The notes: generated from the letters alone by a model not told the origin. Numbered from the stretch's first letter, positions 3,134 through 22,745 are shown. The stretch: 64,000 bases of DNA from an uncultured Acidobacteriaceae bacterium (GCA_963836115.1 CAWIIH010000001.1:18735-82734), one strand, 5' to 3'. Translations and numbers: made by a program.

Positions 3134-3731
3134 TATTCCTCCGCGTTAATTGTTGTCTAGTTGTCATATCTAGAGAGCACGAACCCTGCCGCACTGTATT
3201 TTGTGCGAGATGCGAAAGGTAACTTGGCCGTGTTACCGGAACTTCCTGCATGGTGGAAGAAAATCTGACCTACAGGAAATGCTGTACGACCCCGTTCACA
3301 CGGATCGGCACCAGTGGAAATGAAATCTACGATCTCAAAGAGCGGAAGCACTACCAAACCCGGACCTTGCTGCAAATGGACTCGGCCGAGTGCGGTGTGG
3401 ACAGAAACGGCGGCAAGAGCGTGGTTGGCGAACTGGTGGGTACCGCGGTGAACAGGTTCGGCGAAGGGACGGACTAGTACCGCCCGAAACCTCAAGAATC
3501 GATTTGTAAGGCGACGGTTTCAAAGCGGCAGCGGTTCCCGGCGTATTGCGGTGTCGTCTCTCCGTCGCAGCCCCGCGACGTTCGGTGTCCATCTTTACCA
3601 AGCCATGTTGACATTCGAATGCTTTGCAAGTTTGGTACGGATCGTGCTTGGCAGATGGAAGGCGCTGCTCCGCGAATGACGCAAAGGCAAGTTCCTCATG
3701 TGTTTGCCCGGTGAAAAATCGGAGGAGAGTC

Positions 3732-4145
3732 ATGCCAAGAAAACCTGTAGTTCTATGTGTGGATGACGAATGGAATGGTCTTGAAGGTCGCAAGATGCTG
3801 TTGGAGGAAGCTGCGTGCAAGGTCCTGGTCGCCATCAGCGGAGCAGAGGCTTTGCAACTGTTTGCCTCCCAACCCGTCGATTTAGTGCTACTCGACTATC
3901 ACATGCCTGGAATGAATGGGGATGTCGTGGCAGAGCACATGAAAGCCGTCCAGCCCGATGTTCCAATCGCTCTGGTGTCCGCAGATGATGGGCTACCAGA
4001 GAGCGCTCTGAAATGGGTAGATGCGTTTGTGTCCAAGAGCGAGTCGCCTGCAAACCTGCTACAGATTGTCGAGCATTTGCTCGATCTGCGTTTTCTATTT
4101 GCGCCTCTCGATTTAACTGGCGGGCGAGGAAGACGCGTGGCATAA
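3732..4145 (+). CDS. single-domain response regulator (CheY-like receiver)
   Basis: VLCVDDE ... DLVLLDYHMPGMNG ... canonical receiver motifs. ATG at 3732 is preceded by GGAGGAGAG. Confidence 0.85.
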   Translation: MPRKPVVLCVDDEWNGLEGRKMLLEEAACKVLVAISGAEALQLFASQPVDLVLLDYHMPGMNGDVVAEHMKAVQPDVPIALVSADDGLPESALKWVDAFVSKSESPANLLQIVEHLLDLRFLFAPLDLTGGRGRRVA

Positions 4146-4357: not shown

Positions 4358-4373
4358 TGGCACGGTTCTTGCA
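4358..4373 (+). promoter_or_regulatory. sigma54 (-24/-12) promoter
   Basis: TGGCACGGTTCTTGCA matches the TGGCAC-N5-TTGCA consensus exactly. About 60 nt upstream of the ATG at 4434. Confidence 0.65.
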
Positions 4374-4433
4374 GTCACAAGAGTAGTTTTCGCTGCTTCG
4401 TATTTTGCAAGAGCGCATGGAAGAGAGGTGCTT

Positions 4434-4625
4434 ATGGTAGGCGCAACGAATAATAACAAATACGATTTGAATTCTGCGATCACGTTCCTCTTGGTTGGCC
4501 TAGGTGTCGGGTCGGTTTTGTCCATTGTCTTCAATCCGAAACGAAGAGTCGCGCCAGAGAAAATCGATCGGTGGCGCATGTCAGAGTTGCGGCCACGAAG
4601 GGAAGCAGAGGAGCGAGTAGCGTGA
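4434..4625 (+). CDS. small membrane protein, hypothetical
   Basis: 63 aa with one hydrophobic helix (ITFLLVGLGVGSVLSIVF) and a charged tail. AGAGGTG lies upstream of the ATG. Sits behind the sigma54 promoter. Confidence 0.45.
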   Translation: MVGATNNNKYDLNSAITFLLVGLGVGSVLSIVFNPKRRVAPEKIDRWRMSELRPRREAEERVA

Positions 4626-4727: not shown

Positions 4728-6155
4728 CTAGAACTTGGTCACTTCCGTGAAATTAAACTCTCGAATCTTCATGGCAGGCACGACCATGTCAAACGACTCC
4801 TCGCCGCAGGAACGAACAGGTGCGCTCATGGCCTCCACGCTCGACAGCATGTGGATGAGGCTCTCGTTAAAACGGAAGTTGCGGATTCCCCGTTTGACTT
4901 TTCCGTCTTCCACCAGGAACGTGCCGTCGCGGGTCATTCCCGTAAGCATTTTTTCGTACGGATCGACTTCGCGGATGTACCACAGCCGGGTGACCAGCAC
5001 GCCGCGCTCGGTGGAGGCGATCATCTCAGACAAGGTTTGCGGATTTTGCGGCGCGGCAAAAACGATGTTCAGCGGCATCTCGCCCATTTCGTTGGGCAGC
5101 GGGAATCCATGGCCGGTGGATGCGATGGGCCCGGCCTTATCTCTATGTTCCGAGCGCTTCATTCTTTCCGCCGTCGCCCGCGCATAGACAACGCGTTTGA
5201 CGACTCCTTTCTCTACCAGCGGTACGGGCATCCGGCGCATGCCCTCGCCATCGAAGGGAGAGCCGGTTTGCAGGGGATGCGTGACGTCGTCCCAGATGGT
5301 GATGTTCTCGCCGAAGAGTTGACTACCGATGCGGCCGGTGAGGAAGGAACGCTGGTCGAGGATCGCCATGCCGGAGTAATCCCAGAACATGAAGCCGACG
5401 ATGTCGAGCACGGCGGCGGGCTCGAGAATCACCGTGTACTTCCCTGCTGGAATCTCCGCGGGATGCGCCGAGTCGAGCGTCTTCTGCGCCGCCGTCTCAG
5501 CAAGACGGAGCGGATCGAGGTTGGCCACGTCGGGCGAGTTGGCTTTCTGCCATCCGGAAGAGTCCCCGCCCAGCATGGTGATGGAAACCTCCGCCAGAGT
5601 CTGGGTATGCCAATTGCTCAGGCCGCGCGAATTGAAAATGCCCTCGACAGATTCGGAACTGGAGAAGATTCCAGCAGCTGTGAGTTTGTGTTTCTGCGCA
5701 ACCTCGACGATCTTCTTTACGCTGTCGGCGCGAAGTTGCGGCGTGATGGCCGCAGTCTGAGCGAAATAGCGGGATGGAGCTTGCGTAGTGAGGACGCCCC
5801 CTTCGGCAAGCTCAGGGCGGGCATCGTCCGCGCTGCCGGCAGCTTCGCGACTGTCGGGCATGGGCAGCAAGTCAGGATCAGAATGCTGCACCTTTGCCAA
5901 TGCTTCCGAAGATTCCACCACCCGCCGCAAGCTTTCGTCGTCAAACTTGTTGGTCGTAGCGCGAGCGGTGCGTCCGCCAAAGGCCGTGCGAACCGAGACG
6001 ATATGATTTTCCTCGGCGACGTTCTGATGGATGGTATTGTTCGCAAACCGAGTCAGCGCAAAGCGTCCGCCGGAAATAAGAACCTCGATCTCGTCAGCGG
6101 ACGACAACTTCCTGATGCGGTCAAAGATGTCGCTCGCTTGTTCCCTGGCTAGCAT
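4728..6155 (-). CDS. pmbA: PmbA/TldE-family metalloprotease subunit
   Basis: 475 aa with TldD/PmbA family similarity. Directly downstream of tldD on the same strand. Confidence 0.85.
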   Translation of the reverse strand: MLAREQASDIFDRIRKLSSADEIEVLISGGRFALTRFANNTIHQNVAEENHIVSVRTAFGGRTARATTNKFDDESLRRVVESSEALAKVQHSDPDLLPMPDSREAAGSADDARPELAEGGVLTTQAPSRYFAQTAAITPQLRADSVKKIVEVAQKHKLTAAGIFSSSESVEGIFNSRGLSNWHTQTLAEVSITMLGGDSSGWQKANSPDVANLDPLRLAETAAQKTLDSAHPAEIPAGKYTVILEPAAVLDIVGFMFWDYSGMAILDQRSFLTGRIGSQLFGENITIWDDVTHPLQTGSPFDGEGMRRMPVPLVEKGVVKRVVYARATAERMKRSEHRDKAGPIASTGHGFPLPNEMGEMPLNIVFAAPQNPQTLSEMIASTERGVLVTRLWYIREVDPYEKMLTGMTRDGTFLVEDGKVKRGIRNFRFNESLIHMLSSVEAMSAPVRSCGEESFDMVVPAMKIREFNFTEVTKF

Positions 6156-10900: not shown

Positions 10901-11857
10901 ATGACTAGTCGAATCGCCATGTTCAATCACAAGGGAGGCGTGAGCAAGACCACGACAACCTTTCACCTAGGCTGGATGCTGGCATCGAAGGGCCACCGAG
11001 TGATCGTGGTGGACGCCGATCCCCAATGCAATCTGAGCGGTCTGATTTTGGGCTTCAAAGGCGAGAATGAGTTTGAACAGTACTATGAGGCCGAGGGCAC
11101 CGGGAACATAAGGGCGGGCCTCGCACCGGCATTCGAGTCTCAACCCCGCGCAATTGAGCCCGTCGAATGCGTTGCCGTGGACGGATGCGAGGGCCTATTT
11201 CTGTTGCCGGGGCACATTCGGCTGTCCGAGTGGGAAGTCACACTTGGTATTGCGCAAGAACTCTCCGGTTCGATTCAGACTTTGCAGAATCTACCTGGTT
11301 CCATCACATACCTCCTTGACATCACTGCCCAGAAGTACAAGGCTGATTATGTCTTAGTTGACATGAACCCCAGCCTCAGCTCGATCAACCAAAACATACT
11401 GATGACCAGTGATTTTTTCATTGTTCCCACTTCACCTGATTACTTCTCGGTAATGGCCATTGAATCACTGTCTACGGTGCTCCCTCGCTGGCAGGCGTGG
11501 GCCGAACGCGCGAAACAAAACCCCACGCTTAAGGGTGCTGCATATCCTTACCCAGGAAACACTCCAAGGTTTCTTGGAACCATTATTCAGAAGTACCGGC
11601 CACGCAAAGGAGCTCCTACGGTGGGCTTCCAAAGCTGGATTGATACGATTAACGATAGGGTCGCGAAGCAACTTGTGCCCACTCTTGCGCCTTTAACCAT
11701 GCTGCTACCGCCCGAGCGCTACCAGCAAGTCACAGGCCTCCTGCCCGGCTATTGTCTTTCTCAGATCGCGGACTTCAACACGCTCATAACGAGGTCCCAG
11801 GAGTACAAGACACCCGTTTTTGCCTTAACGAAGGAGCAGTTGGGCCATGTCGGTTAA
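10901..11857 (+). CDS. ParA/Soj/MinD-superfamily P-loop ATPase (orphan, no ParB)
   Basis: Deviant Walker A FNHKGGVSKTTT, then VVDADPQCN and DYVLVDMNPS. The TAA at 11855-11857 is followed by 28 more in-frame sense codons (VLEIDQAKMKEFEAAFSSLADDVATLTA), so the true end may be 11944. Confidence 0.8.
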   Translation: MTSRIAMFNHKGGVSKTTTTFHLGWMLASKGHRVIVVDADPQCNLSGLILGFKGENEFEQYYEAEGTGNIRAGLAPAFESQPRAIEPVECVAVDGCEGLFLLPGHIRLSEWEVTLGIAQELSGSIQTLQNLPGSITYLLDITAQKYKADYVLVDMNPSLSSINQNILMTSDFFIVPTSPDYFSVMAIESLSTVLPRWQAWAERAKQNPTLKGAAYPYPGNTPRFLGTIIQKYRPRKGAPTVGFQSWIDTINDRVAKQLVPTLAPLTMLLPPERYQQVTGLLPGYCLSQIADFNTLITRSQEYKTPVFALTKEQLGHVG

Positions 11858-11991: not shown

Positions 11992-12595
11992 ATGAAACCG
12001 GCGCTCGATCAGTTCGATGAGAATATCTCTCGGGCTCGCGTCCTTTCGGGGCTGGCGAGATCGCTCTCAGTACTCACAACAACAGCAGTTGAACCTTAGC
12101 GACATTTATCGCGCCTCGCTGGTTTTGGGGGTGAGCGCACTTGATCAGTTTGTACACGAGTTCGTCCGGCTTGGAATGCTTGATGTGCATAGGGGAAATC
12201 GGCCCGTTACTGATGCCAACCTCGCCTTTAGGATTCCACTGGGAGCTGCCAGGCTTGGAATAGCCAATCCGACGCGAGACGACTGGCTGGATGCGACCGT
12301 ACGAGAGGCACACTCATGGCAAAGTTTTCAACAGCCCGACAAAATCGCGGACGCGATACGCTTGGTATCAGGCGTCAAGTTATGGGAGGAGGTTGCGAAG
12401 GAAGTCGGAACAGATGCAAAAGCAGTCAAAGTCCGGTTGACCGCAATAATCGACAGGCGAAATCAGATCGCACACGAGGCTGATATGGACCCAACGAATC
12501 CAGGAAATCGGTGGCCAATCAGCAGTGCTCTTACGGAGGATGCGCTTGATTACATCGAGCGCCTGATTCATGCAATCTACAAGTCAACCGTCTGA
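11992..12595 (+). CDS. HEPN-like protein (Rx4H motif), apparent 1-nt frame break near 12094
   Basis: All-helical ~200 aa. C-terminal IIDRRNQIAHEAD carries the R-x4-H HEPN signature. The N-terminus (MKPALDQFDENISRARVLSGLARSL...) is in another frame and joins the 12017-12595 ORF if one base is removed near the CC at 12094-12095. Confidence 0.55.
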
Positions 12596-15109: not shown

Positions 15110-17071
15110 TCACGCGTTCCCGCCCGAAATCCCACTCAACCCGCGCGCCGGAATGTCCCGCAGCGCATCCTTCAGAGCCTCTTTCAGCTCGAGGTTGCGG
15201 ATGAGGCGATGCAGATAGTTAGGATGCACACCCAGAATGCGGGCAGCGTCGGCATAGCTGCCTTGCGTCTGCTCCACGGCATCAAGAATCAATTGCTTCT
15301 TCAATTCCTTGACCGCCGCATGATATTTCGCTTCGGTTATCTCTGGCGGCGGAGTGCGCTCCAGCAGCGATTCCGGCAGATCCTCGGGCAGAATCATATC
15401 CGAGGTCCCCAGCACGAGCGCGCGCTCGATGGCGTTTTCCAGTTCGCGCACGTTACCAGGCCAGTCATAGTTCACCAGGCAAGCCAGGGCCTCGCGCGAG
15501 ATCGGCCGGGGCTTCACTTTGCAGCGTTTCGCATGCTTCTGCACGAAATGCCGCACCAGCATGGGGATATCTTCGCGGCGGTCCCGAAGCGTCGGCATCG
15601 TGATCTTCAACACCGCCAAACGGTAATACAAATCCTGGCGAAACCTGCCGTCGCGCACGGCCTGCTCCAGGTCGCAGTTGGTGGCGGCAATGATTCGGAT
15701 ATCCACCTTGATGGGATGGATCCCGCCGACTCGTTCGAACTCACGCTCCTGCAGCACGCGCAGCAGTTTGACCTGCAGCGTGGGAGCCAGCTCGCCGATC
15801 TCGTCGAGAAAAAGCACGCCTCCATCGGCGACCTCGAGCCGTCCTCTCTTCAGCGATGCGGCTCCGGTAAACGCTCCGCGCTCGTGGCCGAACAGATCGC
15901 TTTCCAGAAGCGTTTCCGGAATCGCAGAGCAATTGATGGCCACAAACGGCTTGCCCGCCCGTGGACTGTTACGGTGCAACGCCCGCGCTGCCAGCTCCTT
16001 GCCGGTTCCGCTCTCGCCCTCGATCAATACTGTCGAATCGATGGGCGCCACGCGCTTCAGGAACTGATAAACCTCTTTCATGTGGGCGCCGTCTCCGACC
16101 AGGCTCCGATCCTGACTGATCTCCACCGTCAGGCGCTCATTTTCCTGTTCCAGCCAATGCAGGCGGCGGGCGTTCTCCAATGCCACCGCGGAGATGCCTG
16201 CGATCGCCGCCACCAGTTGCAAATGCTCTTCGTTGAGACGGTTGCTGACACTGTCGCTGTCGAGATAAATGCACCCAATCACCCGCTGGAATACGGTCAA
16301 CGGCACGCACAGCAGTGAACGCACCTGCGACGCCGCCAGGCTTTCGACCTCGCGCAATTCGCTGCTGCCGGGCACATCACTGCCTAGCATTGCAATTCCC
16401 TGCTCCAGCACCTGGCGCGCGACTGTGCGGCTCACCTTGACCAACTGGGCTTGCCCGGCCTGCCGCATGCGGGCGAACGTGGAATTGAATTCATGGCCGT
16501 CCCTGTCCGCCAGCAGGATGGCGCCCCGGCCTGCGGGAACCACCTCGAAGATCAGGTCGAGCAACTGTCCTTGCAGATCGTTAAGATCGCGAATGGCATG
16601 TACAATCCGGCTGATCTTGAGCAGCGCGTTCAAGTTACGGGCCACACGCGAGGTCGCCGGCAGCTCGCGCAACAATCGGTCCGGCTGCAGATAGATCACG
16701 TCCCTGGGATGGATAATGGTGGTTGCCGCTGTGGCTTGGGCGTCTTCCAGTTCCACGCGGCTCGCCGGCGTAAGATCTTCGTCCTCCAGCAGAAATAAGA
16801 AGGAGGAGTCGCCCGCGGCGATTTCGTCTCCGTGTTGCAGCCATTGTTCTTCGATCCCTGCGCCGTTCACCAGGGTTCCATTGCGGCTTTCGAGGTCCCG
16901 CACCCGGAATCTTCCCTCTCGCCCGCTCACCAGACAATGCTTCCGCGAGACGGACGGATCGGTGATTGCGATTCCATTCGACGCTTCCCGCCCAATGGTC
17001 ACGTCTCCCTCAGACAGAGGAATCGTCGAGTCTTTCAAGGGCCCGGAAAGCACCAGGAGTTTGGGACGCAA
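15110..17071 (-). CDS. sigma54-dependent transcriptional activator with FHA and GAF sensory domains
   Basis: N-terminal FHA (TIGRE ... SRKHC ... SRNGTLVNG), central GAF, AAA+ core ([14 protein letters not shown]), C-terminal Fis-type HTH. Confidence 0.9.
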
Positions 17072-17140
17072 GCTTCCTCACCTCGCGGCCTTCTTATCAC
17101 ACTTCGGCCCTAAATTCATACCCGAAATGAAGTTGTTCCA

Positions 17141-17178
17141 CTATCCGAACGGATAGGAGCTGCTATCCGATCGGATAG
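17141..17178. promoter_or_regulatory. two tandem palindromes, candidate enhancer (UAS) sites
   Basis: CTATCCG-AA-CGGATAG (17141-17156) and CTATCCG-AT-CGGATAG (17163-17178), 22 bp centre to centre. About 120 bp upstream of the sigma54-type promoter and about 70 bp upstream of the EBP start codon. Confidence 0.5.
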
Positions 17179-17297
17179 CAAATGGCCCGGACAGCCGGGA
17201 GAACTCGAAACGGACAGCACCTTGAATTAGGCAATAACTACTTTGCCGAGAATGAGTTGGGTGGATGGCTACATTTCGTGGCAAGCCCGGTGCCGAC

Positions 17298-17313
17298 TGG
17301 CATACGGCATGCA
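17298..17313 (+). promoter_or_regulatory. sigma54-type (-24/-12) promoter
   Basis: TGGCATACGGCATGCA has the GG-N10-GC spacing and 13 of 16 matches to TGGCACG-N4-TTGCA. Confidence 0.5.
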
Positions 17314-17323
17314 ATTGTGAGGT

Positions 17324-17432
17324 TACGCAGGGCTCGGTAAAAGGCGATAGGGGAAGCGCTTTTGATCCGTTCTTGCCGAGTTCGCGCAAATCAGGGATCC
17401 GAGGGGCCCCCTCATCGGGTCCCTGGTTTTTT
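17324..17432 (+). ncRNA. candidate sigma54-dependent small RNA (~110 nt)
   Basis: Bounded by the promoter at 17298-17313 and the intrinsic terminator at 17392-17432. No ATG or plausible ORF inside. Confidence 0.4.
17392..17432 (+). terminator. Rho-independent terminator
   Basis: 11-bp stem CAGGGATCCGA/TCGGGTCCCTG (one G-U), GC-rich loop, then G-TTTTTT. Confidence 0.6.
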
Positions 17433-17453
17433 GGGGCCATTTCGACCTGGTAG

Positions 17454-20400
17454 CTAACTGGCCACCGCTTCGTTGCCCGCAGACGCCGCGACCACAGGCA
17501 CGGCCATCACTGCTCCATCGCGAAACGTAACGCTGTTTCCGGAAATCGCCGGCACGCGCTCACCCGGAACCAAAATTCCCACAAGGTTCAGCGGATCGGC
17601 AGCCGACAGCGTGATCGTTCCCGTAGCGGCATCGAGCTTGCGCATCGCTCGCACGGATTCTACTGCGACCGGAAGCGCAAACTGCTCGCCCAGAAATCCA
17701 TCTACGAAACGGCCGCCACGAATCTCGCCGCGGTCCTCAAGCCTGCGGAAGCCGCCAAGCAACTCTCGCCACGGCGGCAAGTTCGCCTCCCGCGCCAGCA
17801 CATCCCGGACAACAATGCCGTAACGCCGCAGCAGCATCCAGCAGGCTGCTTCGACTGCGCGAGGCCGCTCAACAACTTCATCGGTGTGCAGCAGCGCCCA
17901 CCGGCCCGCATTGTGCCGCGGACGCGTCGTGCGCCCGCTGCCCTGCCCCGCCCGCCGTTTGGGATCGATGAGCGAGCGCAGATTGTCGAACCCGTCAGCG
18001 GTCACCAGGCCGGCAGCCACCAGTTCCCAAAGCCCGGTCTCGATTTCCGCTTTCAGCTTGCCGGTGCCGCGCACGATATCGGCAAAGAACGATGCGCCAC
18101 GCTGCCGCAGAAAATCCAGCACCATCTGTGCTCCATGGCTCAGGCCGCTGGTCGCGCCCGGTTCCGCGCCCGGATGCCGCGGCGTCATCCAATCGGCATC
18201 TTCGCGGATGAAAAACGTAATGGGCGCAACGCTGGTAGGAATCACCCGGCGCTGGCGCGGAGCGGCTGCCGACTGAGAGTCCGTCCCGCGACTCGCACCC
18301 GAGTAATCCAGCGTCGCCGGATGCGGCGACAACCTTCCCCAGCCCACCGCCCCGGTCAGGCAAAGCTGGTCCAGCCATTTGGGATCGTAGTCCGCAATGC
18401 GCCGGGCCAGCACCTGCCGCTCCCACGCATTCGCCGGGATCTCAAACCCTTGCAGTTGCCGCAGCACTTCGAGCGTGCCCCGCTCGCCCGCCACCTGGGT
18501 TCCCGGAGCCATGTGCTGCCAGCGCAGCAGCCATTGCATGAATTGCGCCGCCGTGACCGGCTCGATCTGCTTGCGCAGCGTAGCGACGGTCAGCCGGTGA
18601 ATGCGCGCCAGCAGCCGCCGCTCGCACCATTCGATTCGGCTCGTGTGGCGCGGACGCCCCCGCCCGCGAGGCAGCGCCACTGAAGTTTCCCCGCAGCACA
18701 GTCCCGCTGGCTTCCATGCGAAGCAAAACGTTCGAAATCTCGGACGCGGGAATCCCCAAAGTTCCCCAAGCTGTGTAGCAGTAGTCGGCCCCACATGCGA
18801 CATCCATCCAGTAACCAGCGTAAGTAAAGCATCGTCGCGAGTGGGAGCCGACACTTCCACCGTCGGCCAATTCCTGTTCAAACCGCGCCTCGGGAAACAA
18901 CAGCTGAAAAAGTCCTGGCGCGCTCGGCAGCAACCCAGTAGCGCCGGCCCTCGAATAAAGCGGTCCCCGCCCGCCTTTCGTCAACCAGCCTCTGGAAATG
19001 GCCCAGCCAGTTGTTCCCGGCACTGCCTATGTGGGGAAAGCCGCCCTCGCCTGCCCTGAGCGAAGCCGAAGGGGCTGTCCGGTCGAGCGAAGCTCGACTC
19101 TCCGGCAGCGCCACCAGCGTATGCAGCACATCATGCAACTCATCCGCGTCGCGCACATCCGGCCACGCCTCTTCCCGCACCTGGGCAATCGCCGCCGGAT
19201 CCAGACCTCCCACTTCCTCGAGCACCGATTCCGGCAGCATGCGCCGCATCTGTACCGCGCGCGCCCGCCGCTCCTCCAGCGGCGCGTCGTCGAGAAACGC
19301 ATACGGATTCGCATTCAGAATCTCATGCGAAAACTGCGATGGAACCGGCGTGTCGACCGCGAGACAACGAATCCGCCCGTCGGCCAGCCCGCTCAGCACG
19401 AACTTCAGCCCGTCAATATCCATCGCCTCGGTGAGCACATCCTTCATCACTTCGCCCACCAGCGGATGATCCGGAATCTGTCGCTCGCCTTGAATGTTTT
19501 CGAAACAGGCGGCCGCGTCGGGAAAAACCGAAGCCAGCAGATCGTCGGAGCGCATGCGCTGAATCTGCGCCGGAACTTTCTTTCCGTTCTGAAAGCGCAA
19601 CAGCGCCAGCGCCCGGTTCGCATCCCAGCGCCAGCGCGTGGCAAAGATCGGAGAATCCAGCGCCGCCTGCTCCAGAATCGGCTGCACCGTCGCCGCCTGC
19701 AGAAAGTTGAACACGTCCCCCAGCGGGAAGCTGTGCTGCTCGGCCAACGCGATGTTCAGTCCGTTGTCGGTGGCCGCCGCCTGCAACTCGAAGTTGAAGC
19801 CGCGGCAGAAGCGCTTGCGCAGAGCCAGTCCCCAAGCCTTGTTGATGCGTCCGCCGAACGGCGCGTGGATCACCAATTGCATCCCGCCGCCTTCGTCAAA
19901 GAAGCGCTCCGCAATCACGGTGGTCTGCGTCGGCACCGCGCCCAGCACTGCGCGGCCCTTGCAAAATGTATTCAATTGCCTGCTCCGCGCCGGAATCATC
20001 GAGGCCGCATTCTTCTTTGAGCCAGCCCACCGCTGCGGCCACCTCCGGCTGGGTCGCGGAAAATCCCACCGGCGAGGTATGCGGCAGCATCTCGCTGATC
20101 TTTTCCCGCAGCGTTCCCACATGCGCCGAAAGTTCTTCGGTTCGCGCCGGAGCTTCTCCTCGCCAGAACGGCACACTGGGCGGCGCGCCGTGCGCATCCT
20201 GCACCAGCACCCGGCCAGCGTTGGTTTCGATTCGCCGAATCATCCACGACGTGTTCCCCAGCAGCATGATGTCGCCGCGGTTGCTCTCCACGGCAAAGTC
20301 TTCATCCACCGTGCCCACTACAACGCCATCGGGTTCCGCCACCACGGCGTAGAGCGAGTTGTCCGGGATCGCTCCGCCGCTGGTGATCGCCGCCAGCCGC

Positions 20401-22013
20401 GCCCCGCGCCGCGCCCGCAGTTTGCCGTTCACGCGATCGCGATGCAGATACGCGCCGTAGCGTCCGCGCCGCGCCGCAATGCCCTCGGCCAGCATCTCCA
20501 GAATCGCGTCGAAGGTTGCACGTGCCAGATTGCGATACGGATACGCGCGCTTTACCAGCGCAAATAACTCATCCTCGCCCCACCCATCGGTCGCATTCGT
20601 AGCGCCGGCGTCCTCGCCGGCTGTCGCGAGCCCATCCTGGGCTCGCTGCCGTGATCGAGGCATCGTTGTCTCTGTTCCCGAAGCGCAAGCCGCCACGATC
20701 TGCTGCGCCAGCACATCCAGCGGTGATTCCGGAATCATCAGCCGGTCCAGATCGCCTTGCCGGATGGCACGCACCAAAGCCGCGCACTCCAGCAAATCAT
20801 CGCGAGTCGTGCAAAAAAGTCGTCCCTTGGGAACGGCGCCGCGCCAGTGCCCGGACCGCCCCACACGCTGCAGCGTCACCGCAATCGCGCGCGGCGAATT
20901 GATCTGTACCACCAGATCCACCGTCCCCACATCAATTCCAAGTTCAAGCGACGCGGTCGCCACCAGCACTCGTACCTGGCCTTCTTTCAGTTTCTTCTCG
21001 GCCGCCAGACGCAGCTTGCGCGAGAGACTGCCATGGTGCGCCGCCACATTCTCTTCCCCGATGCGCTCGCCCAGTTGATGCGCCACGCGCTCCGCCATGC
21101 GCCGCGTGTTCACAAACACCAGCGTCGAGCGGTGCTGCTCCACCAGCGCCACCAGCCGGTTGTAAACCTCATCCCACATTTCGTTCGAAGCCACCGGCCC
21201 CAGCGGCATGGGTGGAACTTCGACCGCAAGATCGAGTTTCCGCTTATGCCCGATGTTGACGATCACGGGATCACCGCTTTGAAAGGACGCGGCTTCCAGT
21301 CGCGCCGCAGAGCCCTCTGAGGGTAGAGCGGCTTCAGCCGCTGAGGTCCCGGTCAGAAAGTGCGCCACTTCTTCTATCGGCTTCTGCGTGGCAGATAGTC
21401 CAATCCGCACCGGCGGTTTGTAAGTCAGCGCTTCCAGCCGTTCCAACGACAGCGTCAAGTGCGCTCCACGCTTGTCGTCGGCCACCGCGTGGATTTCATC
21501 CACAATCACCGTCTCGACGTCGCGCAGAATCGCCCGGCTCTTATCCGCCGTCAGCAAAATGTAGAGCGACTCCGGCGTGGTAACCAGAATGTGCGGCGGC
21601 CGCTTCAACATGGCGCGCCGCTCGTGCATGAGCGTGTCGCCGGTACGGACTGCGGTGCGAATCTCGGGCATCAGCAGTCCGCGCTCCCCGGCCATGGCGA
21701 GGATTTCGCCCAGCGGCACTTCCAGGTTTTTCTGGATGTCGTTCCCCAGCGCTTTGAGCGGGGAAACGTAGAGAACTTCGGTCCGATCCGCGAGATCGCC
21801 CGCCAGCGCCTTGCGCACCAGTCGATCAATGCAGGCAAGAAACGCAGCCAGCGTTTTACCCGACCCGGTGGGCGCGGAAATCAGCGTGGTCCGGCCGGCC
21901 AGAATGTGCGGCCAGCCCTGCTCCTGCGGCTCAGTCGGCGTGCTAAACCGCTGCACAAACCACTCTGCCACGAGAGGGTGTGCCCAAGCCAGCGACGCAG
22001 GAAAGGACGGCAT
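17454..22013 (-). pseudogene. lhr: Lhr-family ATP-dependent helicase (~1520 codons), read through at least five frame changes
   Basis: ORFs 19896-22013, 18878-20197 and 17454-18881, plus parts of 18442-19023, concatenate to a full Lhr. It has DEAD/DEAH motifs ([12 protein letters not shown]), the DEAD-associated region and a C-terminal EWCERRLLARIHRLT. Frame changes map to about 19956-19958, 18907-18911, 18867-18868, 18754-18775 and 18657-18661. Confidence 0.85.
19030..19106. repeat. REP-like GC-rich element embedded in the lhr reading frame
   Basis: GCCTGCCCTGAGCGAAGCCGAAGGGG plus the palindrome GTCGAGC-GAA-GCTCGAC, the same family as the intergenic copies. Translates in the lhr frame as ...SLDRTAPSASLRAGEGGFPHIG... 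Confidence 0.5.
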
Positions 22014-22081: not shown

Positions 22082-22453
22082 CTACCTCAGAGCAAGCGTG
22101 ATCCTGATCGCTTCTTCAATCCGCGCGAGAACGTCCCGATCTAGTCGGCCGTAATAGCCCACCAGTCGCGAAACCTGAATCGCGCGAATCTGCTCCGCTT
22201 TTGCGACGCTATCCACCTTTAACCCACCCGAACCTTTGGGAAGTTCGGCGTGGCTGGGGTAAAGACGCCTGACATTGGCTGCTTCGGTGACGGGCACCAC
22301 CACCACCACTGGACTGTTGGCGTTGATGGAATCGCGGCTGATGACCACGACCGGCCGCGTCCCCGCCTGCTCGCTGCCTTCGGTAGGGTCAAGCCGGGCG
22401 CTGAATACGTCGCCGCGAACGGGTTTTGGCAGTGCGGATCTTTGACTGGTCAT
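22082..22453 (-). CDS. mazF: MazF/PemK-family toxin (endoribonuclease)
   Basis: [27 protein letters not shown] ... VVPVT ... [12 protein letters not shown] is typical of PemK/MazF. Confidence 0.8.
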
Positions 22454-22745
22454 GTGCGGCTTCAGGAGTGGCCCTGACCTTGAAAGCTTCCCAGTCGCTC
22501 TTCTCGAATTCGCCGGCCAGCGCAATCGAAGCGCGCTGATAGTCGGCATCGTTCGCCATTTGCGCAAAGGCCGCGTCGATCTCCGCTTCCGTCAGCCTTC
22601 GTACCTTCTCTTCGATTGCCTGGACGACAAAGTCGTTGAAACTCGAAGCCCGCGACTGGACCACTACGGTCTTTGCCCGCTCATACACCTGCCGCGGCAG
22701 CCGCACCGTCGTGTTTTGATATTCCTTCCGGGCGGCTAGGGACAT
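22389..22745 (-). CDS. RHH (CopG-like) antitoxin of the MazF module
   Basis: N-terminal TVRLPRQVYERAK ribbon-helix-helix pattern, directly upstream of mazF. The 65-nt overlap with mazF is unusually long, so the 3' end is uncertain. Confidence 0.55.
   Translation of the reverse strand: MSLAARKEYQNTTVRLPRQVYERAKTVVVQSRASSFNDFVVQAIEEKVRRLTEAEIDAAFAQMANDADYQRASIALAGEFEKSDWEAFKVRATPEAAHDQSKIRTAKTRSRRRIQRPA

Follow-up and report, generated by a model that had tools for sequence, protein, structure and literature searches.

A conserved gene for an approximately 110-nt non-coding RNA beside a predicted sigma54 promoter and a divergent FHA-GAF activator gene in soil Acidobacteria

Layout of the locus

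The window, by which we mean the whole 64-kb stretch of Acidobacteriaceae DNA that was analysed, contains a short intergenic spacer between the start codon of a minus-strand activator gene and the end of a gene for an Lhr helicase (Pfam), which converges on the RNA described here. From the activator start at 17071 to the lhr stop at 17454 the spacer measures 382 bp, close to the 380 bp given in a preliminary description of this DNA, which had proposed that it holds a sigma54-dependent small RNA. The features of the locus are listed below.

15110-17071, minus strand: gene for an enhancer-binding protein of 653 aa with FHA, GAF, Sigma54_activat and HTH_8 domains (Pfam)
17085-17104, no strand assigned: block just 5' of the activator start codon with highly conserved columns in 80 loci
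17141-17156, no strand assigned: candidate upstream activator site 1, CTATCCGAACGGATAG (CTATCCG-N2-CGGATAG), centred at about -175 from the predicted start
17163-17178, no strand assigned: candidate upstream activator site 2, CTATCCGATCGGATAG, the same palindrome, centred at about -153
17233-17262, no strand assigned: island of moderate conservation, GATAA..CTTTGCC.AGA..AAGTTGG, between site 2 and the -24/-12 element
17298-17313, plus strand: -24/-12 element TGGCATACGGCATGCA (TGGCAT-N5-ATGCA), a predicted sigma54-type promoter
17324-17432, plus strand: small RNA of about 109 nt, start predicted, supported by conservation, fold, covariance and metatranscriptome contigs
17333-17338 with 17375-17380, plus strand: helix P1 of the consensus structure
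17340-17346 with 17357-17363, plus strand: helix P2, with a G-rich apical loop at 17347-17356
17389-17405 with 17410-17428, plus strand: helix P3 of the consensus structure, the terminator hairpin
17427-17432, plus strand: U-tract (T6)

By its motifs, the activator is a complete bacterial enhancer-binding protein, as it contains GAFTGA (residue 399), a Walker A motif (GESGTGK, 352), a Walker B motif (VLFLDE, 419) and a C-terminal helix-turn-helix (HTH). Its AAA+ sigma54-interaction domain (PF00158) scored 239 bits, and the Fis-type HTH_8 domain scored 21.3 bits, slightly below the cut-off of 22. No equivalog cut-off was attained when the protein was compared with NCBIfam, the best model being NifA (410 bits versus a cut-off of 529), and the AAA+ part is nearest to the structures of ZraR, NifA and NtrC. 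Motif searches of the 64-kb window found no rpoN, Ser/Thr kinase or PP2C phosphatase gene, and no second activator or other GAFTGA-containing protein. The conserved block at 17085-17104 may belong to the promoter or the 5' UTR of the activator gene.

In the window, lhr (17454-22013, minus strand) is broken into three open reading frames (ORFs) in frames 2, 1 and 2. Because all three parts share one frame in two related metagenome loci (L101 and L179), the lhr of the window carries two frameshifts, which reflect either a pseudogene or an assembly error. On the wider flanks of the locus lie a MazF/PemK-type toxin gene (22082-22567, minus strand) on one side and a RiboL-PSP HEPN-domain gene (12017-12595, plus strand) on the other.

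The elements that the preliminary description had placed in the spacer were all found there: two palindromes 22 bp apart (17141-17178), a -24/-12 element with GG-N10-GC spacing, about 70 nt after the promoter that lack an ATG (none occurs between 17324 and 17392), and a plus-strand terminator with an 11-bp stem and T6 (17392-17432). The centres of the palindromes are separated by two helical turns, and these two are the only perfect copies of CTATCCG-N2-CGGATAG in the 64-kb window, the other four matches having three mismatches, which is chance level. Among the matches listed, two TATC-N6-GATA palindromes were present in 162 of 175 distinct loci; in 161 loci, also among the matches listed, this core was invariant, the palindromes were spaced 19-23 bp apart (mostly 22 or 21), and site 2 sat 111-147 bp 5' of the -24 element. 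Tandem dyads two helical turns apart and 110-150 bp 5' of -24/-12 are the usual enhancer layout, as for NtrC and GlrR (PMC3045617). Taking dyad symmetry, a usually tandem arrangement and a position about 80-200 bp upstream of -24/-12 as the marks of an upstream activator site, we regard the palindromes, on their geometry and their co-occurrence with the activator gene, as candidate sites for the activator. The island at 17233-17262 could be the site of a DNA-bending protein or a third half-site. An integration host factor (IHF) site between enhancer and promoter was considered, and its consensus occurred in only 9 of 159 loci among the matches listed; we therefore claim no IHF site.

In the predicted promoter TGGCATACGGCATGCA, GG at 17299-17300 and GC at 17311-17312 have the GG-N10-GC spacing, in a context resembling TGGCAC-N5-TTGCW. 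The motif alone is not above chance in the window (five matches with at most one mismatch, two of them exact, versus 7.9 expected), so its significance comes from conservation in relatives and not from rarity. Of 175 distinct loci among the matches listed, 168 have TGG-N9-TGCW, always at the same position, and in these 168 TGG and TGC were invariant and the spacer between them variable. GG-N10-GC was kept in all 79 evaluable loci from the genome scan described below and TGGCA-N7-TGCW in 74 of them; the five L001-L080 loci missed by the stricter motif search still have GG-N10-GC. In both sequence and positional conservation, the element thus looks like a sigma54 promoter. The second exact match in the window, TGGCACGGTTCTTGCA (4358-4373, plus strand), lies about 50 nt 5' of a Shine-Dalgarno sequence and a 63-aa ORF (ATG at 4434; region 4358-4625) with one predicted membrane helix, and a gene for a receiver-only response regulator (3624-4145) lies upstream of it.

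Conservation and structure of the RNA

A genome scan with the activator protein yielded 80 loci, all from metagenome-assembled genomes (MAGs) of Acidobacteriaceae or Ca. Sulfotelmatobacter, with 80-92% protein identity, and a metagenome scan with two core words of the RNA added at least 120 further loci. In total, we compared at least 200 related loci from genomes and soil metagenomes, of which about 175 were distinct and had enough flank. The RNA core was present in all 79 genome-scan loci that had upstream sequence. Column conservation across the 80 loci showed that the palindromes and 17325-17432 are nearly invariant and that the remaining spacer drifts; no other stretch of the spacer is as well conserved as the transcribed part, whose conservation sets in at the predicted +1. 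The preliminary description had made conservation of the spacer next to orthologous activators a test of its proposal, and promoter, palindromes and RNA were retained in about 95% of the roughly 175 distinct loci among the matches listed.

Gene linkage was uneven on the two sides of the RNA. Among the matches listed, 170 of 176 evaluable loci had the activator gene as the divergent neighbour of the RNA, and a gene for an M23 peptidase lay beyond it in 140 of 143, whereas Lhr was the next gene after the RNA in just 91 of 175 loci, with 31 unrelated gene families in that place elsewhere. Because the downstream gene varies, the conserved unit is the activator, enhancer, promoter and RNA, and not the RNA with lhr.

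In 83 loci the next gene was not lhr (for example L005:2336-3559, L137, L081 and L011), and 70 of them have a co-oriented gene that begins 10-270 nt past the terminator, again among the matches listed. Of the three larger downstream families, two are secreted proteins that match nothing in Pfam and one is a CDP-alcohol phosphatidyltransferase. Pfam searches with four downstream-gene representatives gave no family for three of them; the downstream protein in L005 matched TPR/PPC. One RNA contig continues out of the RNA into a co-oriented gene of this kind, so read-through may place downstream genes under the promoter of the RNA.

Several loci depart from the common arrangement. One (L120, minus strand, around 5747-5812) carries a natural deletion that leaves the palindromes 50-72 nt before the RNA core; both the sigma54 promoter and the 5' portion of the RNA are lost. 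In another (L133:10693-10808), the RNA copy is degraded (58 bits), its terminator is broken and the sigma54 motif is absent; a partial activator-like gene lies 1.5 kb away. One metagenome contig contains two RNA copies 2.5 kb apart (L153:8366-8427 and 10914-10975). The second copy, also seen at L116:13335-13448, has a sigma54 promoter, TGGCATAAGGCTTGCA, and no palindromes within 260 nt. Pfam gave no match for the ORFs between the two L153 copies, and one flanking ORF matched DinB_2.

The structure of the RNA was assessed in an alignment of 80 distinct copies with a consensus of three helices. In this alignment, 98.0% of pair cells were paired, compared with 39-56% when the partners were slid, and 55 cells were compensatory, with both sides changed, compared with 17.9 in shuffled alignments, none of 500 shuffles reaching 55. 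When 15 diverse members, the sigma70-type class described below among them, were fitted to the model, pairing was 97.1% and 12 pairs showed double changes. The pairing also points to a strand: 239 G-U cells fit the plus strand alone, and pairing was 98.0% on the plus strand versus 88.1% on the minus strand. The covariance check suggested earlier, by model and by pair counts, thus favours a structured plus-strand RNA. P2 and the apex of P3, GGGCCCCCUC, are invariant and so give no covariation support; this invariance argues for selection on sequence as well as shape. In the window, the RNA folds at -53.1 kcal/mol (z -4.1), and the covariance model has a sole full-length match of 111 bits, the other match (12.8 bits, E 0.15) being the terminator hairpin on the opposite strand. 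A covariance-model search found no extra RNA copies in the window or in L001-L080.

The 3' end has the make-up expected of an intrinsic (Rho-independent) terminator. The hairpin CAGGGATCCGAGGGG-CCC-CCTCATCGGGTCCCTG (17392-17425) is followed by G and T6, and its stem has 11 lower pairs, one of them G-U, and four upper pairs. A terminator consensus scan matched the plus strand only, the stem has compensatory changes at seven pairs, and the T-tract is retained in relatives.

No conserved ORF was found in the RNA: the longest plus-strand ORFs vary in start, frame and sequence among copies, with lengths of 5-39 aa; indels whose lengths are not multiples of 3 interrupt the central part of the alignment; and column conservation showed no 3-nt periodicity. 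With its own predicted promoter and terminator, no conserved ORF and a conserved structure, the RNA has the properties of a stand-alone small RNA (sRNA). In the spacer, Rfam 15 gave no match at gathering thresholds (models including Qrr, GlmY/GlmZ, Pxr, CrcZ and Acido-1), and at E values up to 10 there were only chance-level matches, the best of 17 bits against a gathering score of 91. Scanning the window with Rfam likewise brought up no relevant family. RNAduplex runs of the full RNA against 244 translation-start regions of the window returned whole-length duplexes and were uninformative, with the activator ranked 168th and the M23 peptidase gene 159th.

A second class of loci has the same RNA with another type of promoter. 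Homologous RNAs were found in five metagenome loci among the matches listed (L090, L101, L147, L179 and L186; for example L101:1948-2139). These RNAs match the whole length of the model with 53-70 bits and share its fold; their chromosomal site is also the same, with the M23 peptidase gene on one side and a convergent lhr on the other. None of the five loci has the activator, the palindromes or the sigma54 motif; in their place is a sigma70-type promoter, TTGCGA-N17-TATAGT/TATATT, with an inverted repeat, GCAACAAA-N10-TTTGTTGC, over the -35, which suggests control by a different DNA-binding protein. Because these loci keep both the RNA and its site, we read them as the same RNA gene under two kinds of promoter. 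They occur only in wetland and peat metagenomes, and no isolate carrying one was found.

The RNA in soil metatranscriptomes

Soil RNA contains the small RNA, whose 5' boundary there lies beside the promoter. Words of the small RNA were found in about 30 soil metatranscriptome runs from separate studies, and contigs covered it in all 12 soil metatranscriptomes examined. For the window, all eight metatranscriptomes compared with it covered 17365-17426, seven of them from 17334, and none covered the promoter and enhancer region 17086-17302. The DNA metagenomes X5 and X7, by contrast, covered the enhancer region 17086-17178 (depth 40-154) as well as the RNA, so the RNA signal is not DNA carry-over. 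These data are assembled, unstranded contigs that carry no direction. In one run (X31), three low-depth contigs reach into the promoter.

The contig ends were consistent between loci. In the window, the 5' ends of RNA contigs fell at 17332-17338; in L189, three 100%-identical contigs end at 615-617, with a predicted start at 605; and in L005, a 914-nt contig (depth 31) ends at predicted start +11 (3744) and runs 810 nt into the downstream gene. The promoter and enhancer of L005 were devoid of RNA, and its activator gene had separate coverage at a lower level. Since the downstream gene of L005 is co-oriented with the RNA, this boundary is not the 3' end of a convergent mRNA. Taking the three loci together, ten unstranded contigs begin 8-14 nt past the predicted start and three more 20-49 nt past it. 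The cluster at 8-14 nt falls where P1 opens, at its first base; a library effect or 5' processing may account for the offset. At the other end, many RNA contigs extend 70-800 nt beyond the terminator, which indicates leaky termination or the merging of contigs with neighbouring transcripts.

The contigs that pass the terminator bear on a reading in which the RNA works chiefly in cis, as a 5' leader or attenuator, the promoter serves the downstream genes and the terminator is a point of regulated read-through. The 914-nt contig, running at depth 31 from the 5' end of the RNA 810 nt into a gene in the L005-like genome, would fit this reading, as would the 70 loci with a co-oriented ORF about 10-270 nt past the terminator among the 83 in which Lhr is not next. 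Nevertheless, we think it unlikely. The downstream genes belong to 31 unrelated families; a convergent lhr is next in 91 of 175 loci, including the window, where there is nothing to lead into; the RNA and terminator are equally conserved whether the neighbour is convergent or co-oriented; activator-free relatives have the RNA directly against a convergent lhr; and an 88-nt contig covering the RNA alone has the highest depth in one run. The varying neighbour speaks equally to the idea that the conserved stretch is the minus-strand 3' UTR and terminator of lhr, to which we give very little credence. In the window, lhr ends 22 nt from the T-tract, RNA contigs connect the RNA with the 3' end of lhr, and a weak hairpin with trailing Ts could arise from the reverse complement of P2. 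However, just 91 of 175 loci have Lhr next to the RNA, which is unchanged elsewhere, pairing falls from 98.0% to 88.1% on the minus strand, a U-tract follows the hairpin on the plus strand only, and the same 5' boundary is found where the downstream gene is co-oriented.

It is similarly far-fetched that the sigma54 promoter drives a small protein-coding gene. Mechanical ORFs do overlap the region (17265-17453, plus strand, 62 aa; 17182-17340, plus strand, 52 aa), but the transcript has no ATG, plus-strand ORFs are inconsistent among relatives (5 to 39 aa), and neither the indels nor the conservation follow a 3-nt pattern. A further reading leaves the RNA in place and questions its regulator: the palindromes could be bound as operators by some other regulator, or have autoregulation of the activator as their sole function, with a different enhancer-binding protein firing the promoter. 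They lie just 70-107 bp from the activator start codon, and the second RNA copy in L153 and L116 has a sigma54 promoter with no palindromes within 260 nt. Against this, palindromes, promoter and activator co-occur in about 95% of loci and are all absent from the sigma70 class, tandem dyads 110-150 bp 5' of -24/-12 are the usual enhancer layout (PMC3045617), and the window encodes no other GAFTGA-containing protein; we consider this reading quite unlikely.

Proposed mechanism and relation to known systems

The spacer holds a real, conserved gene for a non-coding RNA of about 110 nt in soil Acidobacteria. Its most probable product is a stand-alone, structured small RNA driven by sigma54 and the divergent activator. 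The dependence of the promoter on sigma54 and on the activator, the plus-strand direction of the transcript and its action in trans are what we infer from the features described above. In this scheme, dimers of the FHA-GAF-AAA+-HTH protein would bind the two 16-bp palindromes, which lie about 150-175 bp upstream, and would oligomerise once the FHA module (a phospho-threonine reader), the GAF module (ligand) or both release the ATPase. The DNA would then loop to bring the activator to the closed sigma54-RNA polymerase complex at -24/-12, which ATP hydrolysis would open, and transcription would proceed rightward from near 17324, mostly ending at the intrinsic terminator at 17432. The predicted product is a long P1-P2 hairpin with an invariant G-rich loop, followed by the terminator hairpin with its invariant GGGCCCCCUC apex, and it could act in trans, either by base pairing as a riboregulator or by binding protein. 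As the palindromes abut the upstream region of the activator gene, they probably also autoregulate it. A link to Ser/Thr-kinase or ligand signalling, as the preliminary description had it, is suggested solely by the domain content of the activator.

A more far-reaching version of this scheme can be put forward only tentatively. The RNA might be the dedicated, perhaps only, output of an undescribed route in a lineage that ranks among the most abundant soil bacteria, in which a Hanks-type Ser/Thr kinase or a ligand acts through an FHA/GAF-gated enhancer-binding protein and sigma54 on a riboregulator. The invariant apical loop, which contains GGGG, and the invariant GGGCCCCCUC apex would then form a protein-binding platform and not a classical seed, and a sister lineage would have been rewired to sigma70 under GCAACAAA-N10-TTTGTTGC.

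The layout had been likened to LuxO/Qrr and GlrR/GlmY, and the regulatory design is indeed shared with these systems; no homology of the RNA to Qrr, GlmY/GlmZ or Pxr was found with Rfam models in the spacer. In Vibrio, qrr1 divergently adjoins luxO, and LuxO, through sites in the region that the two genes share, also represses its own gene. LuxO is a dedicated enhancer-binding protein that activates the sigma54 promoters of the roughly 100-nt Qrr sRNAs (PMC3252764). The present locus resembles that system in its presumably dedicated enhancer-binding protein, its sRNA of about 100 nt and, with respect to qrr1 and luxO, its divergent layout; it differs in that LuxO is a phospho-relay response regulator and that the seed and targets of Qrr are known. 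GlmY works by protein sequestration of RapZ. In Enterobacteriaceae, GlmY and GlmZ have sigma54 promoters with tandem GlrR sites upstream, and the homologous sRNAs of related species have either sigma54 with the activator or a plain sigma70 promoter (PMC3045617), which the two promoter classes found here parallel. The sites themselves differ, with three TGTC-N10-GACA and IHF sites there and two CTATCCG-N2-CGGATAG palindromes and no IHF consensus here, and GlrR is a response regulator, unlike the FHA-GAF activator of this locus.

Pxr of Myxococcus and other myxobacteria is an sRNA of roughly 108 nt with three stem-loops, including the terminator, and a predicted sigma54 promoter, lies in an intergenic region beside nla19, and has paralogous copies in some myxobacterial genomes (PMC5568312). 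RNA size, a three-helix structure that includes the terminator and a predicted sigma54 promoter beside an activator gene are common to the two systems, and both have hosts that are soil bacteria rich in enhancer-binding proteins. By contrast, Pxr lies downstream of nla19, whereas the RNA here is divergent from its activator, and Nla19 is a response regulator from a different phylum, whereas the activator here has FHA and GAF domains and no receiver. In Desulfovibrio vulgaris, comparative reconstruction of the sigma54 regulome placed four non-coding RNAs under enhancer-binding proteins, and such regulators tend toward free-living soil and sediment species (PMC4641369); these are different RNAs in a different phylum, with no relation detected.

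A literature search found no description of an sRNA or a sigma54 regulon in Acidobacteria of this group. These bacteria are among the commonest in soil and peat. The locus thus offers a concrete regulatory module for them, an RNA with a predicted promoter, enhancer and activator that is seen in 12 of 12 soil metatranscriptomes examined. As a simple read-out of the activator's signal, the RNA lets one ask what FHA/GAF activators sense, and its sigma54 and sigma70 versions at the same chromosomal site are a natural example of an sRNA gene switching promoter type. What is new is the RNA family and the pairing of activator and RNA, within a regulatory design already known from other bacteria; compared with LuxO, GlrR and Nla19, the activator of this pair has FHA and GAF inputs in place of a receiver domain.
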